NCBI GenBank assembly: GCA_963803805.1
Contig: CAWDOD010000006.1
Coordinates: forward strand, 128,001 to 192,000
DNA: 64,000 bases
Origin: an uncultured cyanobacterium
Lineage (GTDB): Bacteria; Cyanobacteriota; Cyanobacteriia; Cyanobacteriales; CAWCAG01
Direction of reading: 5' to 3'
Numbering within the stretch: position 1 is the stretch's first letter; every line of letters begins with the position of its first letter. Shown in pieces: positions 16,773-54,287 of the stretch. The notes beneath the pieces are model-generated. The model was not told the DNA's origin and did no database searches. It saw only the letters and a program-made list of their open reading frames with translations. A program made the position numbers and the translations under genes.

Positions 16773-16851
16773 TAATGCTAATGGCTAATTGCTAATGGCT
16801 AATTGCTTTAAACTTTTGGTAATTTACCATTAGACTTGACCTGGAAAACAG

Positions 16852-41824: not shown

Positions 41825-42478
41825 TCAACTAGATGACGATTCTAAGGCAAAACGTACCAATTCAGCGCGGTTACTAGTTTCTGTCTTCCTCAGCAGGCTA
41901 CTAACGTACTTTTCGATGGTACGATGACTTAAGTGCAATTGTTGGCCAATTTCGATGTTAGAAAGTCCTGTAGCTAATAAATTAAGGACTTGTTGCTCTC
42001 GTTCGGTGAGATGGAAAGATTCTGGTAGGGGAGGAGGAGATTTTGGTGATTGTGAGGTTTTAGTTAAAGATTTTTGAGAAGAAAAACGTAACTCCGACTG
42101 GACAACTTGCGATCGCTCTAGCAAGTTACGAATAACCGCTCCCAACTCTTCCATTTCAAAAGGCTTAGGTAAATAAACATCACAGCCAACTTGATAACCA
42201 AGAATACGCTCTTCTGTGGTGTTACGTTCTGTGAGAAAAACTACAGGCATTAAGCGGAATTGTGGGCGCTGACGCACCTGCTTAACTAATTCATAACCAT
42301 TTTTTCGGGGCATTCTAATGTCAGCTACCATCAAATGGGGATGATAGGTTTCTAGCCGCTCAAGGGCCTCTTGTCCATCACAAGCTGCGACAACCGAGTA
42401 GCCTGATAGTTCCAGGTAATCACTAACAGCTAACCGAACACCAGGATTGTCATCAGCAACTAATATTAACAGAGGCAT
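41825..42478 (-). CDS. NarL/LuxR-family response regulator
   Basis: Receiver domain (ADDN, ADIRMP, PKPF) plus LTEREQQVLNLLATGLSNIEIGQQLHLSHRTIEKYVSSLLRK HTH. Confidence 0.92.
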   Translation of the reverse strand: MPLLILVADDNPGVRLAVSDYLELSGYSVVAACDGQEALERLETYHPHLMVADIRMPRKNGYELVKQVRQRPQFRLMPVVFLTERNTTEERILGYQVGCDVYLPKPFEMEELGAVIRNLLERSQVVQSELRFSSQKSLTKTSQSPKSPPPLPESFHLTEREQQVLNLLATGLSNIEIGQQLHLSHRTIEKYVSSLLRKTETSNRAELVRFALESSSS

Positions 42479-42658
42479 ATTTTTTTTTGCTACTCTACAG
42501 AATTACTATACAATTAATTTTCTGTAAAGCATAGTTAATATTACTTATAGTATTTCTTGTGGTTATGAGGTACAAACTTTTTGCTTTGAGGGAGTGGGAT
42601 AAGAGTACGATTCCAGTACAGCAAAGATGAAATTAAAATAGAGCCAACCGATAGATAA

Positions 42659-43111
42659 TTAAACTTCTTTAACTGAACCAAGGAACTTTTGCGGAGGATT
42701 ATCAGGCTCACTACACTTTTCTAACGAAGCGATCGCAGTACCTTGTGCATGATGTTCTTTCTGTCTTTTAACATAGTTAACCGCCACATCTAATTGTTTA
42801 CTACCTAAAGAAAAAACCCCATATCCGCTTTGCCACTTAAATACTTGTTCTGAAACAAGTTCCTTGTTGAGGTAATGTGTACTGCTACCTTTAATCTTTT
42901 TAACAAACTCAGAAATAGGCATTTGAGGAGGAATCGAAGCCACAAGGTGAAGATGATCTTCTGTACCACCGAGGGCGTGAATGAGACAATTAAGGGCATC
43001 GGCCTTACCAATAATGTAGCGGTGGAGTATGACTTCTTTTTGAGGAATAATTAGAGGAAGTCGGTTCTTCGTCGTCCAAACAAAATGGTAATACAAACGC
43101 CAGAGGGCCAC
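42659..43111 (-). CDS. tnpA: Y1 HUH tyrosine transposase (IS200/IS605 TnpA fold), probably REP-associated (RAYT/TnpA-REP-like)
   Basis: YHFVWTTKNR, HUH motif DHLH, KGSS, WQSGYGVFS, catalytic YVKRQKEHH; GTG start with GGAG RBS; no tnpB nearby. Confidence 0.9.
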   Translation of the reverse strand: MALWRLYYHFVWTTKNRLPLIIPQKEVILHRYIIGKADALNCLIHALGGTEDHLHLVASIPPQMPISEFVKKIKGSSTHYLNKELVSEQVFKWQSGYGVFSLGSKQLDVAVNYVKRQKEHHAQGTAIASLEKCSEPDNPPQKFLGSVKEV

Positions 43112-43141
43112 AATATCTTTGCTCCGAATTGCGAATCAATA

Positions 43142-44433
43142 ATAATGGTATCAACCCTATACCGCTAAGGATTAAAATCCATAGCTAATAGCTTAAGTCA
43201 TCTTGAAGATGACTCCCAAAACTTCGGTGGAAAACAGGATAACAAAACCTTGATTTAATTTCTCCCCCTAGTCATGTTCAGATGACTTTGGCTATTAGCC
43301 ACCGAATTAATTCGGTGAGCGGGTAACATTAATTTAATCGCGCCAATTAACGATAATGGTATCAACCCTATACCGCTAAGGATTAAAATCCATAGCTAAT
43401 AGCTTAAGTCATCTTCAAGATGACTCCCAAAACTTTGGTGGGAAAACAGGATAACAAAACCTTGATTTAATTTCTCCCCCTAGTCATGTTCAGATGACTT
43501 TGGCTATTAGCCACCGAATTAATTCGGTGAGCGGGTAACATTAATTTAATCGCGCCAATTAACGATAATGGTATCAACCCTATACTGCTAAGGATTAAAA
43601 TCCATAGCTAATAGCTTAAGTCATCTTCAAGATGACTCCCAAAACTCTGGTGGGAAACAGGATAACAAAACCTTGATTTAATTTCTCCCCCTAGTAGTCT
43701 TCAGATGACTTTGGCTATTAGCCACCGAATTAATTCGGTGAGCGGGTAACATTAGTTTAATCGCGCCAATTAACGATAATGGTATCAACCCTATACTGCT
43801 AAGGATTAAAATCCATAGCTAATAGCTTAAGTCATCTTGAAGATGACTCCCAAAACTCTGGTGGGAAAACAGGATAACAAAACCTTGATTTAATTTCTCC
43901 CCCTAGTCATGTTCAGATGACTTTGGCTATTAGCCACCGAATTAATTCGGTGAGCGGGTAACATTAGTTTAATCGCGCCAATTAACGATAATGGTATCAA
44001 CCCCATACTGCTAAGGATTAAAATCCATAGCTAATAGCTTAAGTCATCTTGAAGATGACTCCCAAAACTCTGGTGGGAAACAGGATAACAAAACCTTGAT
44101 TTAATTTCTCCCCCTAGTCATGTTCAGATGACTTTGGCTATTAGCCACTGAATTAATTCGGTGAGCGGGTAACATTAATTTAATCGCGCCAATTAACGAT
44201 AATGGTATCAACCCTATACTGCTAAGGATTAAAATCCATAGCTAATAGCTTAAGTCATCTTGAAGATGACTCCCAAAACTTTGGTGGGAAACAGGATAAC
44301 AAAACCTTGATTTAATTTCTCCCCCTAGTCATGTTCAGATGACTTTGGCTATTAGCCACCGAATTAATTCGGTGAGCGGGTAACATTAGTTTAATCGCGC
44401 CAATTAACGATAATGGTATCAACCCTATACTGC
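43142..44433. repeat. Tandem array of six 211-212 bp units plus a 24-bp partial unit; each unit contains an inverted pair of REP-like double-hairpin elements
   Basis: ATAATGGTATCAACCC recurs at 43142, 43353, 43565, 43776, 43988, 44199 and 44410. Internal palindromes: GGATTAAAATCC, AGTCATCTT(G/C)AAGATGACT, AGTCATGTTCAGATGACT, CACCGAATTAATTCGGTG. Confidence 0.97.
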
Positions 44434-44463
44434 AAATCAACAATAACCAGCATCCCTAAAGAT

Positions 44464-44493
44464 AAAAAAAGGTGGCCAACTGGCCGCCTTTTT
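44464..44493 (-). terminator. Rho-independent terminator of the porin gene
   Basis: AAAAAAAGGTGGCCA-AC-TGGCCGCCTTTTT, about 25 nt past the porin stop; T-runs on both strands. Confidence 0.85.
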
Positions 44494-44517
44494 ATTTAAA
44501 ACCTCGATTCTGAGTGA

Positions 44518-46194
44518 TTAGAATGTGAAGGTTGTACGCAAAACACCAACATAAACAGTGTCGTTAGCGTCATTGTGTTCAGGGTTGAAGATAACTATCA
44601 CTCCAGGAGTGATGAGAACGTTATTGCTAACTCTGTATTTGTACAATGCTTCTAAGAGATAAGAAGTATCAGGATCTTCACGGCCTGCAATATCATTGCT
44701 AGTTACTTTAGGAGGCATACCAAACGCAAGACCTAAAACGTTACCTTCACCACCTAAATCTTTGAAACCAACACGGGCTGTCCAATTCCAAATATCAGCA
44801 CTATTGCCATTAACTTCGTCTTCTGCATCTACGTAACCAACCCAACCACCAACACTAATAGTGTCGGTGAGGGCGAAGTCACCTTGAATACCAAAGCGGT
44901 TAGCAGATGTTGGTTGATCAACGCCTCCAATTCTAAAGGGATCGTTAGCGTTGCTGCTACCTACACTACCACCAAGACTAACATCGTCACCGTCAGGGGC
45001 GCCATCGCCTGAATAGTAACCACGACCGTAGGTAGCAGATAAAGCTAACTTATCTTCAAGAAGACTCAAGTTAAGCTGAGCTAAAGCAGTATAACTTCCG
45101 TCGAACAAAACACCTTCTTTATCAGCAGGGTTATTCGCACTAGGAACACCATAAGCTAGTTGCAAATTAGCGTTATCGCTAAACTCAAAGGTTAGCCCAG
45201 CACCTGCATCCACAGGAAAGCGGTGTACCGCAGGATTACGACGATTAAAACGAGATAAAGCACCAGTACCGCTGCTGGCAAATAGAGGGTTAGTTTCCTC
45301 AAGTAGGTCATTTTCACTAATTACTGGAGCAATTATAAAGCTAACTCTATCACCCAAAGGAGCTTGGTAGTACAATCTGTTAAGATTAACATTATTTCCT
45401 TGGTCTGCTTCATAACCCAAACGGGCCATGTCTGTACCTGTTCGGTTGTCCATTGGGAAGGTATTACCAGCTTGTAGACGAGTCCTTAAGCGATCTCTGC
45501 CAGTAAAGCTAGTGTCTAATGTTAAGCGGACGCGATCGCTTAAGGTAATATTGTCGTCAACGTCTACAGTACCATTACCACCAGTAACAGCTTTTTTATC
45601 ACCAAAAGCACTATCTAAACTGAAGATAACCTCACCTTTCAACTTAGTGGTAGTGGAGAATTGATGATCTTCAACAAAAGCAACACGCCCTTCTAAGTCA
45701 TCTACCCTTGCACCCAAGGTAGCTAACTCTGCTTCAAACTCTTGAACCAAACGACGTAGAGTAACTAAGTCTTCACCATCTACACTGCCGATGTTTTCTT
45801 CTACCCACTCCATACAACGGCTCACCGCTGCTGCAAACTCATAGCGAGTGATGTTGCGTTGACCTTTGAAAGTTCCGTCAGGATAACCCACAATACAGCC
45901 ATACTTGTCAACCATCTTTTGTACAGCACTAAACCAGAAAGGATCGATATCTGATAGCTGGTTAACGCTAGTAACCTGATCTAATGATGTTTCGTCGCCA
46001 TTATAGTCGTTGATTTGTTGCAACATCTCTTCTGTAGAGAGAGATGCGTCGGCAACTTCAACAGAAGCATTTGCTTCGCTAACAACTGCTTCGGTAGCAG
46101 GAGTTTCAGCAGCGAAGGAACTATTAGTGACAAACAAAGAAGCACCTAGTACAGCAGGAGCAACTTTACAAACTTGCCAGAGCAATTTTGACAT
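44518..46194 (-). CDS. Cyanobacterial outer-membrane porin (SLH + OprB-like; SomA/iron-uptake porin family)
   Basis: Signal peptide, SLH-like GCIVGYPDGTFKGQRNITRYEFAA, coiled coil, FSTTTKLKGEVIF, C-terminal LRTTFTF. Confidence 0.93.
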   Translation of the reverse strand: MSKLLWQVCKVAPAVLGASLFVTNSSFAAETPATEAVVSEANASVEVADASLSTEEMLQQINDYNGDETSLDQVTSVNQLSDIDPFWFSAVQKMVDKYGCIVGYPDGTFKGQRNITRYEFAAAVSRCMEWVEENIGSVDGEDLVTLRRLVQEFEAELATLGARVDDLEGRVAFVEDHQFSTTTKLKGEVIFSLDSAFGDKKAVTGGNGTVDVDDNITLSDRVRLTLDTSFTGRDRLRTRLQAGNTFPMDNRTGTDMARLGYEADQGNNVNLNRLYYQAPLGDRVSFIIAPVISENDLLEETNPLFASSGTGALSRFNRRNPAVHRFPVDAGAGLTFEFSDNANLQLAYGVPSANNPADKEGVLFDGSYTALAQLNLSLLEDKLALSATYGRGYYSGDGAPDGDDVSLGGSVGSSNANDPFRIGGVDQPTSANRFGIQGDFALTDTISVGGWVGYVDAEDEVNGNSADIWNWTARVGFKDLGGEGNVLGLAFGMPPKVTSNDIAGREDPDTSYLLEALYKYRVSNNVLITPGVIVIFNPEHNDANDTVYVGVLRTTFTF

Positions 46195-46758: not shown

Positions 46759-47919
46759 TCAAAAAGAAGAGCCTTCTAATCTTTCTAGGATAACGTTGCG
46801 ATTATTAATAGCGGATTGGAAGTCTGGTTTAATCTCCAAAGCTTTGTCATAGGATAATAGCGCTTCTTGGTAGTTCTCTAATTCGTAGAGAATATTGCCG
46901 CGATTGTACCAAATTCTACTATCATTAGGTTTAATTTCTAGAGCTTTTTCATAGGATAATAGGGCTTCTTGGTAATTCTCTAATTCGTAGAGAATATTGC
47001 CGCGATTATGCCAAGTTTCACTATTATCAGGTTTGATTTCTAAAGCTTTGTTATAGGATAGTAGGGCTTCTTCGTATTGTTCTAATTTACTTAGGGAAAC
47101 ACCACGATTATGCCAAGTTTCACTATTATCAGGTTTGATTTCTAAAGCTTTGTTATAGGATAATAGTGCTTCTTCATATTGTTCCAAGTTACTTAGGGCA
47201 GCACCACGGTTATACCAAGTTCTACTATCATCAGGTTTAATTTCCAAAGCTTTGTTATAGGATAGTATAGCTTCTTCATGTTGTTCTAATTTACTTAGGG
47301 CAACACCACGGTTATACCAAGTTCTACTATCATCAGGTTTAATTTCCAAAGCTTTGTTATAGGATAGTATAGCTTCTTCATGTTGTTCTAATTTACTTAG
47401 GGCAACACCACGGTTATGCCAAATTCTACTATCATCAGGTTTAATTTCTAAAGCCTTATCATAGGAAGCTATCCCCTCTTCATGTTTTCCTACATCTCCT
47501 AAAGCATTGCCGCGATTATACCAAGCTTTATAGTGGTTAGGATTAATTTCCAAAGCTTTGTCGTAGGAGTCTATTTCCTCTTGATGCTGCCCTAAATCTC
47601 CTAGTACAACACCACGATTATTCCAAGCAGCATCGTAGTCGGGTTTAATTTCTAAAGCTTTGTCGTAGGATAACAACGCTCCTTGATATTGTTTCAACTT
47701 TTTTAAAGCGTTGCCACGATTATACCAAGCTACATGATTATCAGGTTCAATTTCCAAGGATTGATCATAAGCCGCTATGGCCTCTTGATAGCTTTTCTCT
47801 CCGTGTAATTGATAAGCTTCAGAAAAAAGCTTGTTTGCTCTGGATTTGCCCGTGAAACCACAAGCAGATAGAGAGAGAATGAGAATAACAGGAAGAGTTA
47901 ATTTGTAGCTAAGTTTCAT
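46759..47919 (-). CDS. TPR-repeat lipoprotein
   Basis: Lipobox-like LSLSAC; about ten 34-aa repeats (WYNRG...YDKALEIKPD); near-identical 102-bp DNA repeats at 47202, 47304 and 47406. Confidence 0.9.
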   Translation of the reverse strand: MKLSYKLTLPVILILSLSACGFTGKSRANKLFSEAYQLHGEKSYQEAIAAYDQSLEIEPDNHVAWYNRGNALKKLKQYQGALLSYDKALEIKPDYDAAWNNRGVVLGDLGQHQEEIDSYDKALEINPNHYKAWYNRGNALGDVGKHEEGIASYDKALEIKPDDSRIWHNRGVALSKLEQHEEAILSYNKALEIKPDDSRTWYNRGVALSKLEQHEEAILSYNKALEIKPDDSRTWYNRGAALSNLEQYEEALLSYNKALEIKPDNSETWHNRGVSLSKLEQYEEALLSYNKALEIKPDNSETWHNRGNILYELENYQEALLSYEKALEIKPNDSRIWYNRGNILYELENYQEALLSYDKALEIKPDFQSAINNRNVILERLEGSSF

Positions 47920-48109: not shown

Positions 48110-49210
48110 CTAACTATTAAGAGAACTTCCTATTTTTTCGAGGAGATTGTTGCGGTTGTTGATTGCTGTTTGATTGTTGGGGTTAAGTTCAATAGCTTTT
48201 TGATAAGATTCTAGAGCTTCATCATAGCGCTCAAGAGATTCAAGGGCAAAACCGCGGTTGTTCCAAGCTTTACTATAGTCAGGTTTAATCTCCAAGGCTT
48301 TTTCATAAGAGACTAATGCTTCTGAGTGTTTTCCTAAGAATGTTAGAGCCGTACCACGATTAAACCAAGCTGAACTATTATTAGGGTTAATCTCCAAACC
48401 TTTGTTATAAGATGCTAATGCTTCAGCATATTTTCCTAAGTTCCTTAGAGCAACGCCACGATTAAACCAAGCTGAACTGTTGTTAGGCTCAATCTCTAAA
48501 GCTTTATCATAGGATGTTACTGCTTCTGTGTAATTTTCTATGTTTACTAGAGCATCGCCACGATTAAACCAAGCTTCACTGTCATTAGGTTCAATCTCTA
48601 AGACTTTATCGTAAGATGCTATTGCTTCGGTGTAGTTTCCTAGATTAGATAAAGCCAGTCCGCGACCATACCAAGCTGAACTCTTTTTAGGTTCAATTTC
48701 TAAAGCTTTGTCGTAAGATGCTATAGCTTCGGTATAGTTTCCTGACTCTATTAAAGCACCACCACGATTATTCCAAGCTGAACTATCGTTAGGTTTAATC
48801 TCCAAAGCTTTGTCATAGGATGCTACTGCTTCTGTGTAATTTTTTATGCTCACTAGAGCATTGCCTCGGTTATACCAAGCTGAACTCTTGTTAGGCTCAA
48901 TTTCTAAAGCTCTGTCGAAGGAAGCAATCGCCTCTTCGTACTTTTCTAGTTTCACGAGGGCAGCACCCCGATTTGTCCAAGCCTTGTGGTAGTCAGGCTC
49001 AATCTCTAAAGCTTTGTCGTAAGATTCGATTGCTTTTCCATAACGCCCTTGACTGAAGAATTGATTACCTTCGGAGTAAAAATCTTCTGCTGTGGTTGCT
49101 TCAGCAACTTCTATTGCTGGGGCTGCTAACACAGGTGGTTCAATCAAATTACCAGTAGATAAAGATAAAGCAACAATGCCAGGAAGAGTTAGTAAGTAAC
49201 GAAGTTTCAT
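48110..49210 (-). CDS. Exported TPR-repeat protein, paralog of the neighbouring gene
   Basis: Signal-peptide-like N-terminus; about nine TPRs (AWFNRG...YDKALEIEPN). Confidence 0.9.
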   Translation of the reverse strand: MKLRYLLTLPGIVALSLSTGNLIEPPVLAAPAIEVAEATTAEDFYSEGNQFFSQGRYGKAIESYDKALEIEPDYHKAWTNRGAALVKLEKYEEAIASFDRALEIEPNKSSAWYNRGNALVSIKNYTEAVASYDKALEIKPNDSSAWNNRGGALIESGNYTEAIASYDKALEIEPKKSSAWYGRGLALSNLGNYTEAIASYDKVLEIEPNDSEAWFNRGDALVNIENYTEAVTSYDKALEIEPNNSSAWFNRGVALRNLGKYAEALASYNKGLEINPNNSSAWFNRGTALTFLGKHSEALVSYEKALEIKPDYSKAWNNRGFALESLERYDEALESYQKAIELNPNNQTAINNRNNLLEKIGSSLNS

Positions 49211-54246: not shown

Positions 54247-54287
54247 TAATGGCTAATAGCTAGTGGCTAGTGGCTAGTTGCTAATAG
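54247..54287. repeat. STRR-like heptamer tandem repeat; similar runs at 7577-7595, 16777-16807, 41652-41679 and 57438-57461
   Basis: TAATGGC TAATAGC TAGTGGC TAGTGGC TAGTTGC TAATAG. Confidence 0.75.

Follow-up and report, generated by a model that had tools for sequence, protein, structure and literature searches.

A class-1 Y1 transposase gene beside a tandem array of two-hairpin repeats in an uncultured cyanobacterium: a candidate REPtron-like system

Background

Repetitive extragenic palindromic (REP) sequences and the REP-associated tyrosine transposases (RAYTs) are the textbook example of a domesticated transposase with a resident population of repeats, and they were defined on class-2 enzymes of proteobacteria. 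Here we describe a gene for a Y1/HUH single-stranded DNA (ssDNA) nuclease/transposase which adjoins a tandem array of inverted hairpin doublets in an uncultured cyanobacterium. The stretch analysed, called the window in what follows, comprises 64,000 nucleotides (G000:C6:128001-192000, G000 being the source genome of 5.3 Mb). The two halves of a doublet are here called arms, and the gene belongs to a group of cyanobacterial sequences that we refer to as clade A. We consider it probable that the locus is a REPtron/TIRtron-like system based on a class-1 Y1 enzyme and adjoining six tandem arm doublets, the array being a local amplification. By analogy, the gene and its array likely work as the proteobacterial pairs of REP repeat and transposase do. 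The enzyme would bind the hairpins of the arms and cut them as ssDNA, thereby copying or moving the doublets. Judging from the biochemistry of IS608 and ISDra2 TnpA and of Escherichia coli TnpA-REP, the protein may act as a dimer that recognises ssDNA hairpins, and cleavage would proceed through Tyr113 with a 5'-phosphotyrosine intermediate, the strands being rejoined without target duplication.

The locus resembles the REPtron of E. coli and the REPIN-RAYT system of Pseudomonas, as described (PMC3333891, PMC3116915, PMC3337134), in that a single-copy Y1 gene adjoins extragenic hairpin repeats, and these repeats are mostly inverted doublets, dispersed over the chromosome and sometimes gathered in tandem clusters. 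Nevertheless the enzyme described here is of class 1, has no Y---NP motif and falls short of the RAYT model NF047646, and the repeat, about 55 nt long, forms two hairpins and is without a conserved GTAG tag. Moreover it occurs in tens of copies and not hundreds, and within the genus the locus is not a conserved one. In the RAYT layout the gene lies between inverted REPs, whereas the arms in the window lie on the 5' side only; arms on both sides were found at nine of 14 homologue loci. A similar arrangement is that of the TIRtrons, in which the Y1 gene of a TIRYT (terminal inverted repeat-associated Y1 transposase) lies between long inverted repeats, some of them doubly palindromic, which are moderately abundant and form dimers or clusters (Di Nocera 2013, PMC3733652). 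Such bracketing is seen in homologues such as locus L020, whereas the copy in the window is one-sided. All 26 described TIRYTs are assigned to class-2 subclasses and none to subclass 1.2 in Quentin 2018 (PMC6006769), unlike our enzyme, which is placed in class 1. [quoted passage not shown] It differs from them in lacking several identical copies and tnpB, in the HH tail added on the tyrosine helix, and in end hairpins that are inverted and of variable orientation instead of being left and right ends on the same strand.

The TnpA-Y1 subclass 1.2, to which we assign the enzyme, is characterised in Table 1 of Quentin 2018 (PMC6006769) by the motifs Y---Q--HH, DH[IV]H and WQ, a length of about 148 aa and a short conserved tail. 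The same survey describes these proteins as low in copy number, present in Cyanobacteria and nearer to IS200 transposases than to TnpA-REP; the REP column of Table 1 reads "no" for them, and they are generally without typical IS200 terminal structures (PMC6006769). Its automatic REP search demanded a GT[AG]G foot (PMC6006769). Whereas subclass 1.2 is listed there without REPs (PMC6006769, Table 1), the cyanobacterial and Chloroflexota clade studied here is flanked by two-hairpin repeats. No paper tying subclass 1.2 to repeats was found in the literature searched, and the module is a variant absent from that literature. The REP-type partnership would accordingly be extended to a class-1 lineage listed as repeat-free in the reference survey. 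Conservation of the repeat between cyanobacteria and Chloroflexota is sufficient to define an ssDNA substrate for biochemistry, and the system bears on the origin of tandem repeat clusters beside such genes. As regards annotation, clade-A genes should not be named ordinary IS200 transposases.

The gene and its tandem array

The clade-A open reading frame (ORF) occupies positions 42659 to 43111 on the minus strand, starts with GTG and encodes 150 aa with the catalytic residues intact, DHLH being residues 52-55 and YVKRQKEHH residues 113-121. Between the start codon and the array lies a leader (43112-43141) which by eye resembles the end of the linker between doublets, so that the repeated structure appears by eye to extend to the start codon in degenerate form. 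Tandem Repeats Finder placed the array at 43142-44433 (plus strand), with a period of 211, 6.1 copies and 97% matches. Alignment of the units resolves it into six of them at 43142-43352, 43353-43564, 43565-43775, 43776-43987, 43988-44198 and 44199-44409 (211, 212, 211, 212, 211 and 211 nt), followed by a partial seventh of 24 nt (44410-44433).

Each unit is made up of an inverted arm doublet (unit positions 21-184) and a linker of about 45 nt. The arm is a module of about 55 nt with a CCGC(C) outer end, a first hairpin of 9 bp with an A+T loop, a centre resembling GCTAATAGC, and a second hairpin with an AGTC...GACT foot. A doublet has one arm of each of two subtypes, A and B, which differ in hairpin 1. 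In the first unit the left arm, of type A, spans 43162-43214 on the plus strand (outer CCGC, hairpin 1, central GCTAATAGC, hairpin 2), and the right arm, of type B and inverted, spans 43270-43318 on the minus strand. The arm searches located the further type A arms at 43373-43425, 43586-43637, 43797-43848, 44009-44060 and 44220-44271 (plus) and the further type B arms at 43482-43530, 43693-43741, 43905-43953, 44116-44164 and 44327-44375 (minus). Folded as ssDNA, one unit reaches -37.4 kcal/mol, whereas 200 shuffles give -16.5 +/- 3.4 (z = -6.1).

The first-pass annotation of this DNA had described a 150-aa HUH/Y1 protein with DHLH, a tyrosine motif and an HH tail, without tnpB and without an obvious hairpin on the 3' side, and an array of six 211-212 bp units (1.29 kb) beginning 30 bp upstream of the start codon. 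All of this was borne out: the protein by the ORF list and by its match to Pfam Y1_Tnp, and the array by Tandem Repeats Finder. No tnpB-like ORF adjoins the gene in the ORF list of the window, and on the 3' side the covariance model search gave no family arm at E <= 1, the inverted repeats there being weak and A+T-rich only.

Association of the arms with the gene in other genomes

A covariance model built from 21 arms of the source genome (model R1) was run with filters off on the fetched loci. Near the homologues found in 61 relatives it detected arms at 14 of 14 loci (52-63% identity) with E <= 3e-5, the nearest arm being 8 to 113 nt from the gene; besides the nine loci with arms on both sides there were five with arms on one. 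A second, named collection comprised Coleofasciculaceae, Microcystaceae, Nostoc linckia, Dolichospermum, Phormidesmidales, a metagenome-assembled genome of Ardenticatenaceae and others. Here R1 arms lay within about 160 nt at all nine loci with at least 55% identity, and the locus from Ardenticatenaceae, which belong to the Chloroflexota, had an R1 arm at 50.9 bits. In total, R1 arms are present within about 160 bp of 23 of the 24 intact close homologues. The remaining one (53% identity) was missed by R1 but by eye has divergent two-hairpin arms in an array of 2.8 copies of 174 bp beside the gene, so the same palindromes, which the first reading had taken to belong with the gene, accompany all 24 of these intact close homologues, 23 by the model and the last by eye. 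A decayed clade-A copy in genome G015 also has arms on both flanks.

None of the 14 other Y1 loci used as controls had arms. These were nine loci of clade B, the cyanobacterial sister of clade A (5 + 2 + 2), three of IS200 type, the class-2 RAYT of the source genome and its second Y1 gene. The arms were also considered as cognates of that class-2 RAYT, and this was dropped as no arms lie near it.

Class of the enzyme

The protein matches Pfam Y1_Tnp (PF01797) with an E-value of 4.9e-26 and 91.7 bits. Its nearest solved structures are the IS608 and ISDra2 transposases (PDB 2a6m and 2xm3, E ~1e-16), and the E. coli TnpA-REP structures gave no match to it at E<=1. It passed the NCBIfam IS200/IS605 model NF033573 (81.1 bits, cut-off 55) and failed the REP-associated tyrosine transposase model NF047646 (20.9 bits, cut-off 80). 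Residues H53, H55, Y113, Q117, H120 and H121 are invariant across 15 aligned sequences. The protein has the Y---Q--HH signature (as YVKRQKEHH), KWQ and a length of 150 aa with a short C-terminal tail, all traits of subclass 1.2. Its DHLH has L where the consensus of the subclass has I/V, and the homologues have DHIH or DHVH.

A protein tree of 47 rows, in which the outgroups were only four IS200-type and two class-2 sequences, joined the 41 rows with Y---Q--HH in one clade (support 100/99) separate from both. Within it the protein of the window falls in a clade of 18 rows (97/91) made up of cyanobacterial clade A and sequences of Ardenticatenaceae and Anaerolineae, while clade B has the same Y---Q--HH signature at about 40% identity. 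On these sequence comparisons the enzyme is assigned to TnpA-Y1 subclass 1.2 and not to RAYT/TnpA-REP class 2. The suspicion that it might be one of the ordinary multi-copy IS200 transposases is answered by its place in a separate clade and by its single copy in the genome. As to the term REPtron-like, which the first-pass annotation had applied to the locus, it holds as a way of working and fails as membership in the RAYT family, given the score with NF047646.

The same genome contains a true class-2 RAYT (L166, G000:C10:342714-343166), which scores 186 bits with NF047646 and has a YIHYNP motif. The second, divergent Y1 gene (L167, G000:C7:202790-203221) scores 51.5 bits and has YIVNNP.

The arm family of the source genome

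By iterated nhmmer the 5.3-Mb genome has 31 arms, made up of the 12 array arms and of 19 more spread over 12 further loci; the covariance model found 32. The count of dispersed copies that had been proposed in the initial reading thus showed a population beyond the array. Seven of the 12 dispersed loci are inverted A+B doublets. All 12 are extragenic, with no overlap of an ORF of 100 aa or more apart from 22 nt at one locus.

The arm hairpins are, by their pattern of substitution, under structural constraint. In 21 aligned arms 88% of cells are paired compared with 79% in shuffles, none of the 500 shuffles reaching the observed value, and pairing falls to 27-45% when the partners are slid by 1-3 columns. 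Both sides of hairpin 1 are changed in seven of its nine pairs among these arms. In hairpin 2 the AGTC/GACT foot is kept across genomes, and the upper stem is swapped for other complementary sequences. GTAG follows hairpin 2 on the complementary strand in five of the 21 aligned arms (by eye), which does not amount to a conserved GT[AG]G foot.

The doublets, of about 160 bp, may already have been listed as members of a MITE family of cyanobacteria, Nezha for example. Nezha, attributed to Zhou in 2008, is reportedly one of cyanobacterial MITEs of 130-170 bp. In the window, 14-nt tandem repeats (TGCTAATGGCTAAT and TGGCTAATAGCTAG) at 16776-16807 and 54250-54287 resemble the central GCTAATAGC motif of the arm. 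They also resemble the heptamer repeats of filamentous cyanobacteria.

Copy number, mobility and competing explanations

The clade-A gene has one match in its own genome, and of the 15 relatives that bear it 13 have a single copy, in keeping with the low copy number of subclass 1.2. In the two genomes with two copies these are 82% and 72% identical. No homologue was found at E<=1e-20 in any of 72,556 plasmids, and for each gene there are 20 to more than 100 arms.

Co-occurrence in the 61 genomes speaks for an association of gene and arms. Counting the matches listed and with no correction for shared ancestry, at least 20 arms together with the gene were found in 12 genomes, arms only in five, the gene with 6-9 arms in three and neither in 41. 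Several observations, on the other side, weigh against the main reading. Three well assembled relatives (G021, G024 and G029) have 32, 82 and 76 arms, and a profile search too gave no clade-A gene in them. Arms must therefore last, or be produced, in the absence of a clade-A gene, which argues against a strict dependence of the arms on it. The orientation of the arms beside the gene varies among loci. In the source genome there is, judging from the copies, no sign of recent arm spread, because the dispersed doublets closest to that of the array are only 67-73% identical to it and the arms have a mean column identity of 75%. Two doublets sit within a larger element with terminal inverted repeats of about 19 nt (TACACGACTTGGAAGGTTG type; L009:1339-1622, which is G000:C2:1205149-1205432, and G000:C3:309630-309910). 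G000 has the 284-nt composite at a site where the congener G001 lacks it, and this larger element could move its two nested doublets independently. Of four filled/empty sites queried against G001 two were inspected, and at the second the doublet is absent and the surrounding 45 nt cannot be aligned, the identity of the genomes being about 85%. The gene too is not fixed in place. The congener has neither gene nor array at the syntenic site, where the flanking genes are 84-87% identical; the clade-A gene that it does have shows 59% identity, is located at another place and falls on a different branch of the tree, the protein of the window grouping with Nostocaceae-type sequences and not with that of its congener. 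Such a lack of a conserved locus agrees better with a gene that is mobile or exchanged than with one that is strictly domesticated. Finally, cleavage and mobilisation of the arms are here deduced by homology.

Alternatively, the arms might be kept or spread by something else, such as another transposase or a host function acting through RNA or DNA structure, and the Y1 gene might merely attract or tolerate them. The three genomes with many arms and no gene would agree with this, as would the doublets inside the larger inverted-repeat element. Against it stand the arms at 23 of 24 intact homologue loci compared with none at 14 other Y1 loci, in two phyla. With some 30-110 arms per 5-8 Mb, a given gene would by chance have an arm within 160 bp with a probability estimated at the order of 1%, and we regard this explanation as improbable.

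At the syntenic site G001 keeps a remnant of one arm and the sequence of the last 17 nt of the array before the porin flank. On the left an island of 44 nt (42627-42670) shared with G001 at 89% identity spans the last three codons and the stop of the gene, the left breakpoint of the indel of gene and array being 42670/42671. Homology with the congener resumes at 44417, inside the partial seventh unit, which is the region of the right breakpoint. Since these final codons and the stop fall within the shared island, the original 3' end of the gene seems to have been lost in a rearrangement together with a 3' arm. The system in the source genome looks old and quiet, since the dispersed arms are few and diverged and the 3' arm of the gene seems to be lost; only the array looks young.

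Presence and absence of gene and array between congeners, with the G001 copy in another lineage and at another site, would also suit a decaying and unusual IS200-family element. The gene would then be part of an autonomous arm-tnpA-arm element surviving by movement between genomes, the doublets would be its MITE- or PATE-type deletion derivatives, and the 3' end would have been lost here. Compact arm-gene-arm units of about 600 bp do exist at L020, L023 and L025; at L020 the arms stand 24 nt ahead of the start and 10 nt beyond the stop. Because of such forms, which count for the main reading as well, the doublets look like gene-less derivatives. Two loci from different families (L013 in G006 and L014 in G016) have DNA identities of 93.6% in the Y1 gene segment and 97.5% in a 478-bp flank, perhaps owing to a recent exchange or to a mobile region common to both. 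The score with the IS200/IS605 model points in the same direction. On the other hand, the copy number is one in most gene-bearing genomes, the duplicates have diverged to 72-82%, no plasmid copies were found and the arms far outnumber the genes. Moreover the flanking arms are inverted and of variable orientation, unlike left-end and right-end hairpins on the same strand. In family f7, genomes G008 and G044 share the locus of the gene with flanks that are 90% identical, and this indicates vertical descent of the locus. We therefore judge the decaying element unlikely and prefer the REPtron/TIRtron-like system.

Origin of the array

The units of the array are 97-99% alike, compared with the 67-73% of the closest dispersed doublets over the doublet, and the array should therefore be much younger than the arm family. 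No copy of the linker and spacer of the unit was found outside the array in the genome and all fetched loci. Since the linker is local and unique, the simplest origin of the array is a tandem duplication of doublet and linker. Most likely it grew by local duplication of one doublet with its linker of about 45 nt, through unequal recombination or slippage.

The number of six units is that of the assembly, no short-read contig spanning the array. In one run, short-read contigs cover the gene and its flanks and break inside the array without bridging it, which is what an assembly artefact made from fewer copies would also give. A 203-nt array contig in that run has a depth of 22.5 compared with a flank depth of about 7, the few differences between the units follow a consistent pattern, and similar arrays stand beside homologues in other assemblies; an artefact is accordingly extremely improbable.

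Arrays of arm units, expected beside orthologs by the first-pass annotation, do occur next to the clade-A gene in at least six other loci (L018, L019, L023, L074, L076 and L081). Their dimensions are 231 bp x 2.7 copies in L019, 125 x 3.5 in L023, 203 x 1.9 in L074, 140 x 1.9 in L076 and 174 x 2.8 in L081. At L017 there are two doublets with 183 nt between them, and in G033 an arm-unit array of 209 x 2.8 lies away from the gene.

The array might also be read as a set of genes for small structured RNAs, with one such gene in each unit, or as a regulatory leader of tnpA. One unit folded as RNA gives z = -5.2, and a promoter-like site (TTAACG-16-TATACT, plus strand) occurs in four of the six units, in the linker of the T-variant units (43559-43586, 43770-43797, 44193-44220 and 44404-44431), positioned to start transcription at the left arm. 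Such sites are no more frequent than by chance, with seven in the array region against 6.6 +/- 2.5 in shuffles. The Rfam scan of 42400-44600 at E<=1 returned only a chance plant miRNA match (E 0.49), and the same arms are found elsewhere singly and in both orientations. An RNA role of this kind is thus very improbable. A CRISPR-like or small RNA array was likewise dropped for want of support.

The wider subclass 1.2

The Y---Q--HH signature was found in 71 of the 80 loci returned for the family. Loci bearing it (L086-L152 among them) come from Cyanobacteriota, Chloroflexota, Planctomycetota, Verrucomicrobiota, Acidobacteriota, Bacteroidota, Chlamydiota, Thermodesulfobacteriota and others. When the 400 nt upstream were compared with the 400 nt downstream, 39 of the 57 distant loci with enough flank were bracketed by an inverted repeat of at least 30 bits, compared with two of 57 in mismatched flank pairs. 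These repeats are 15-86 nt long and lie about 40-130 nt from the gene ends. Bracketing by inverted repeats seems, at the level of sequence, to be general for subclass 1.2.

More tentatively, subclass-1.2 enzymes could be a third lineage with REPs, independent of the others, which arose on the IS200 side of the family and is present in at least seven phyla, and whose enzyme makes the gene-adjacent arrays in cis by HUH strand transfer, at the replication fork, between arms that lie next to each other. Amplification by the enzyme in cis is possible because tandem arrays recur beside these genes, but we hold this wider proposal to be doubtful. If it were true, the locus would be the simplest system for watching the birth of REP clusters of the bacterial interspersed mosaic element (BIME) type.

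Flanking sequences

The gene is flanked by a response-regulator gene (41825-42478, minus strand) and, beyond the array, by a gene for an OprB/SLH porin (44518-46194, minus strand). By eye, the array stops on the porin side about 30 nt short of a hairpin that is rich in G+C, is accompanied by T-runs and lies downstream of the porin gene; this hairpin is not among the sites listed by the terminator scan. In the congener G001 a terminator-like hairpin of this type (GGCGGCCA..TGGCCGCC) occurs twice within 450 bp (L154:1130-1180 and 1545-1590, on G001:C9), and one of the two copies follows an unrelated upstream gene. Further along the window, periodic repeats of 102 bp at 46759-47919 and 48263-49025 lie inside genes for TPR-repeat proteins and are ordinary coding repeats.

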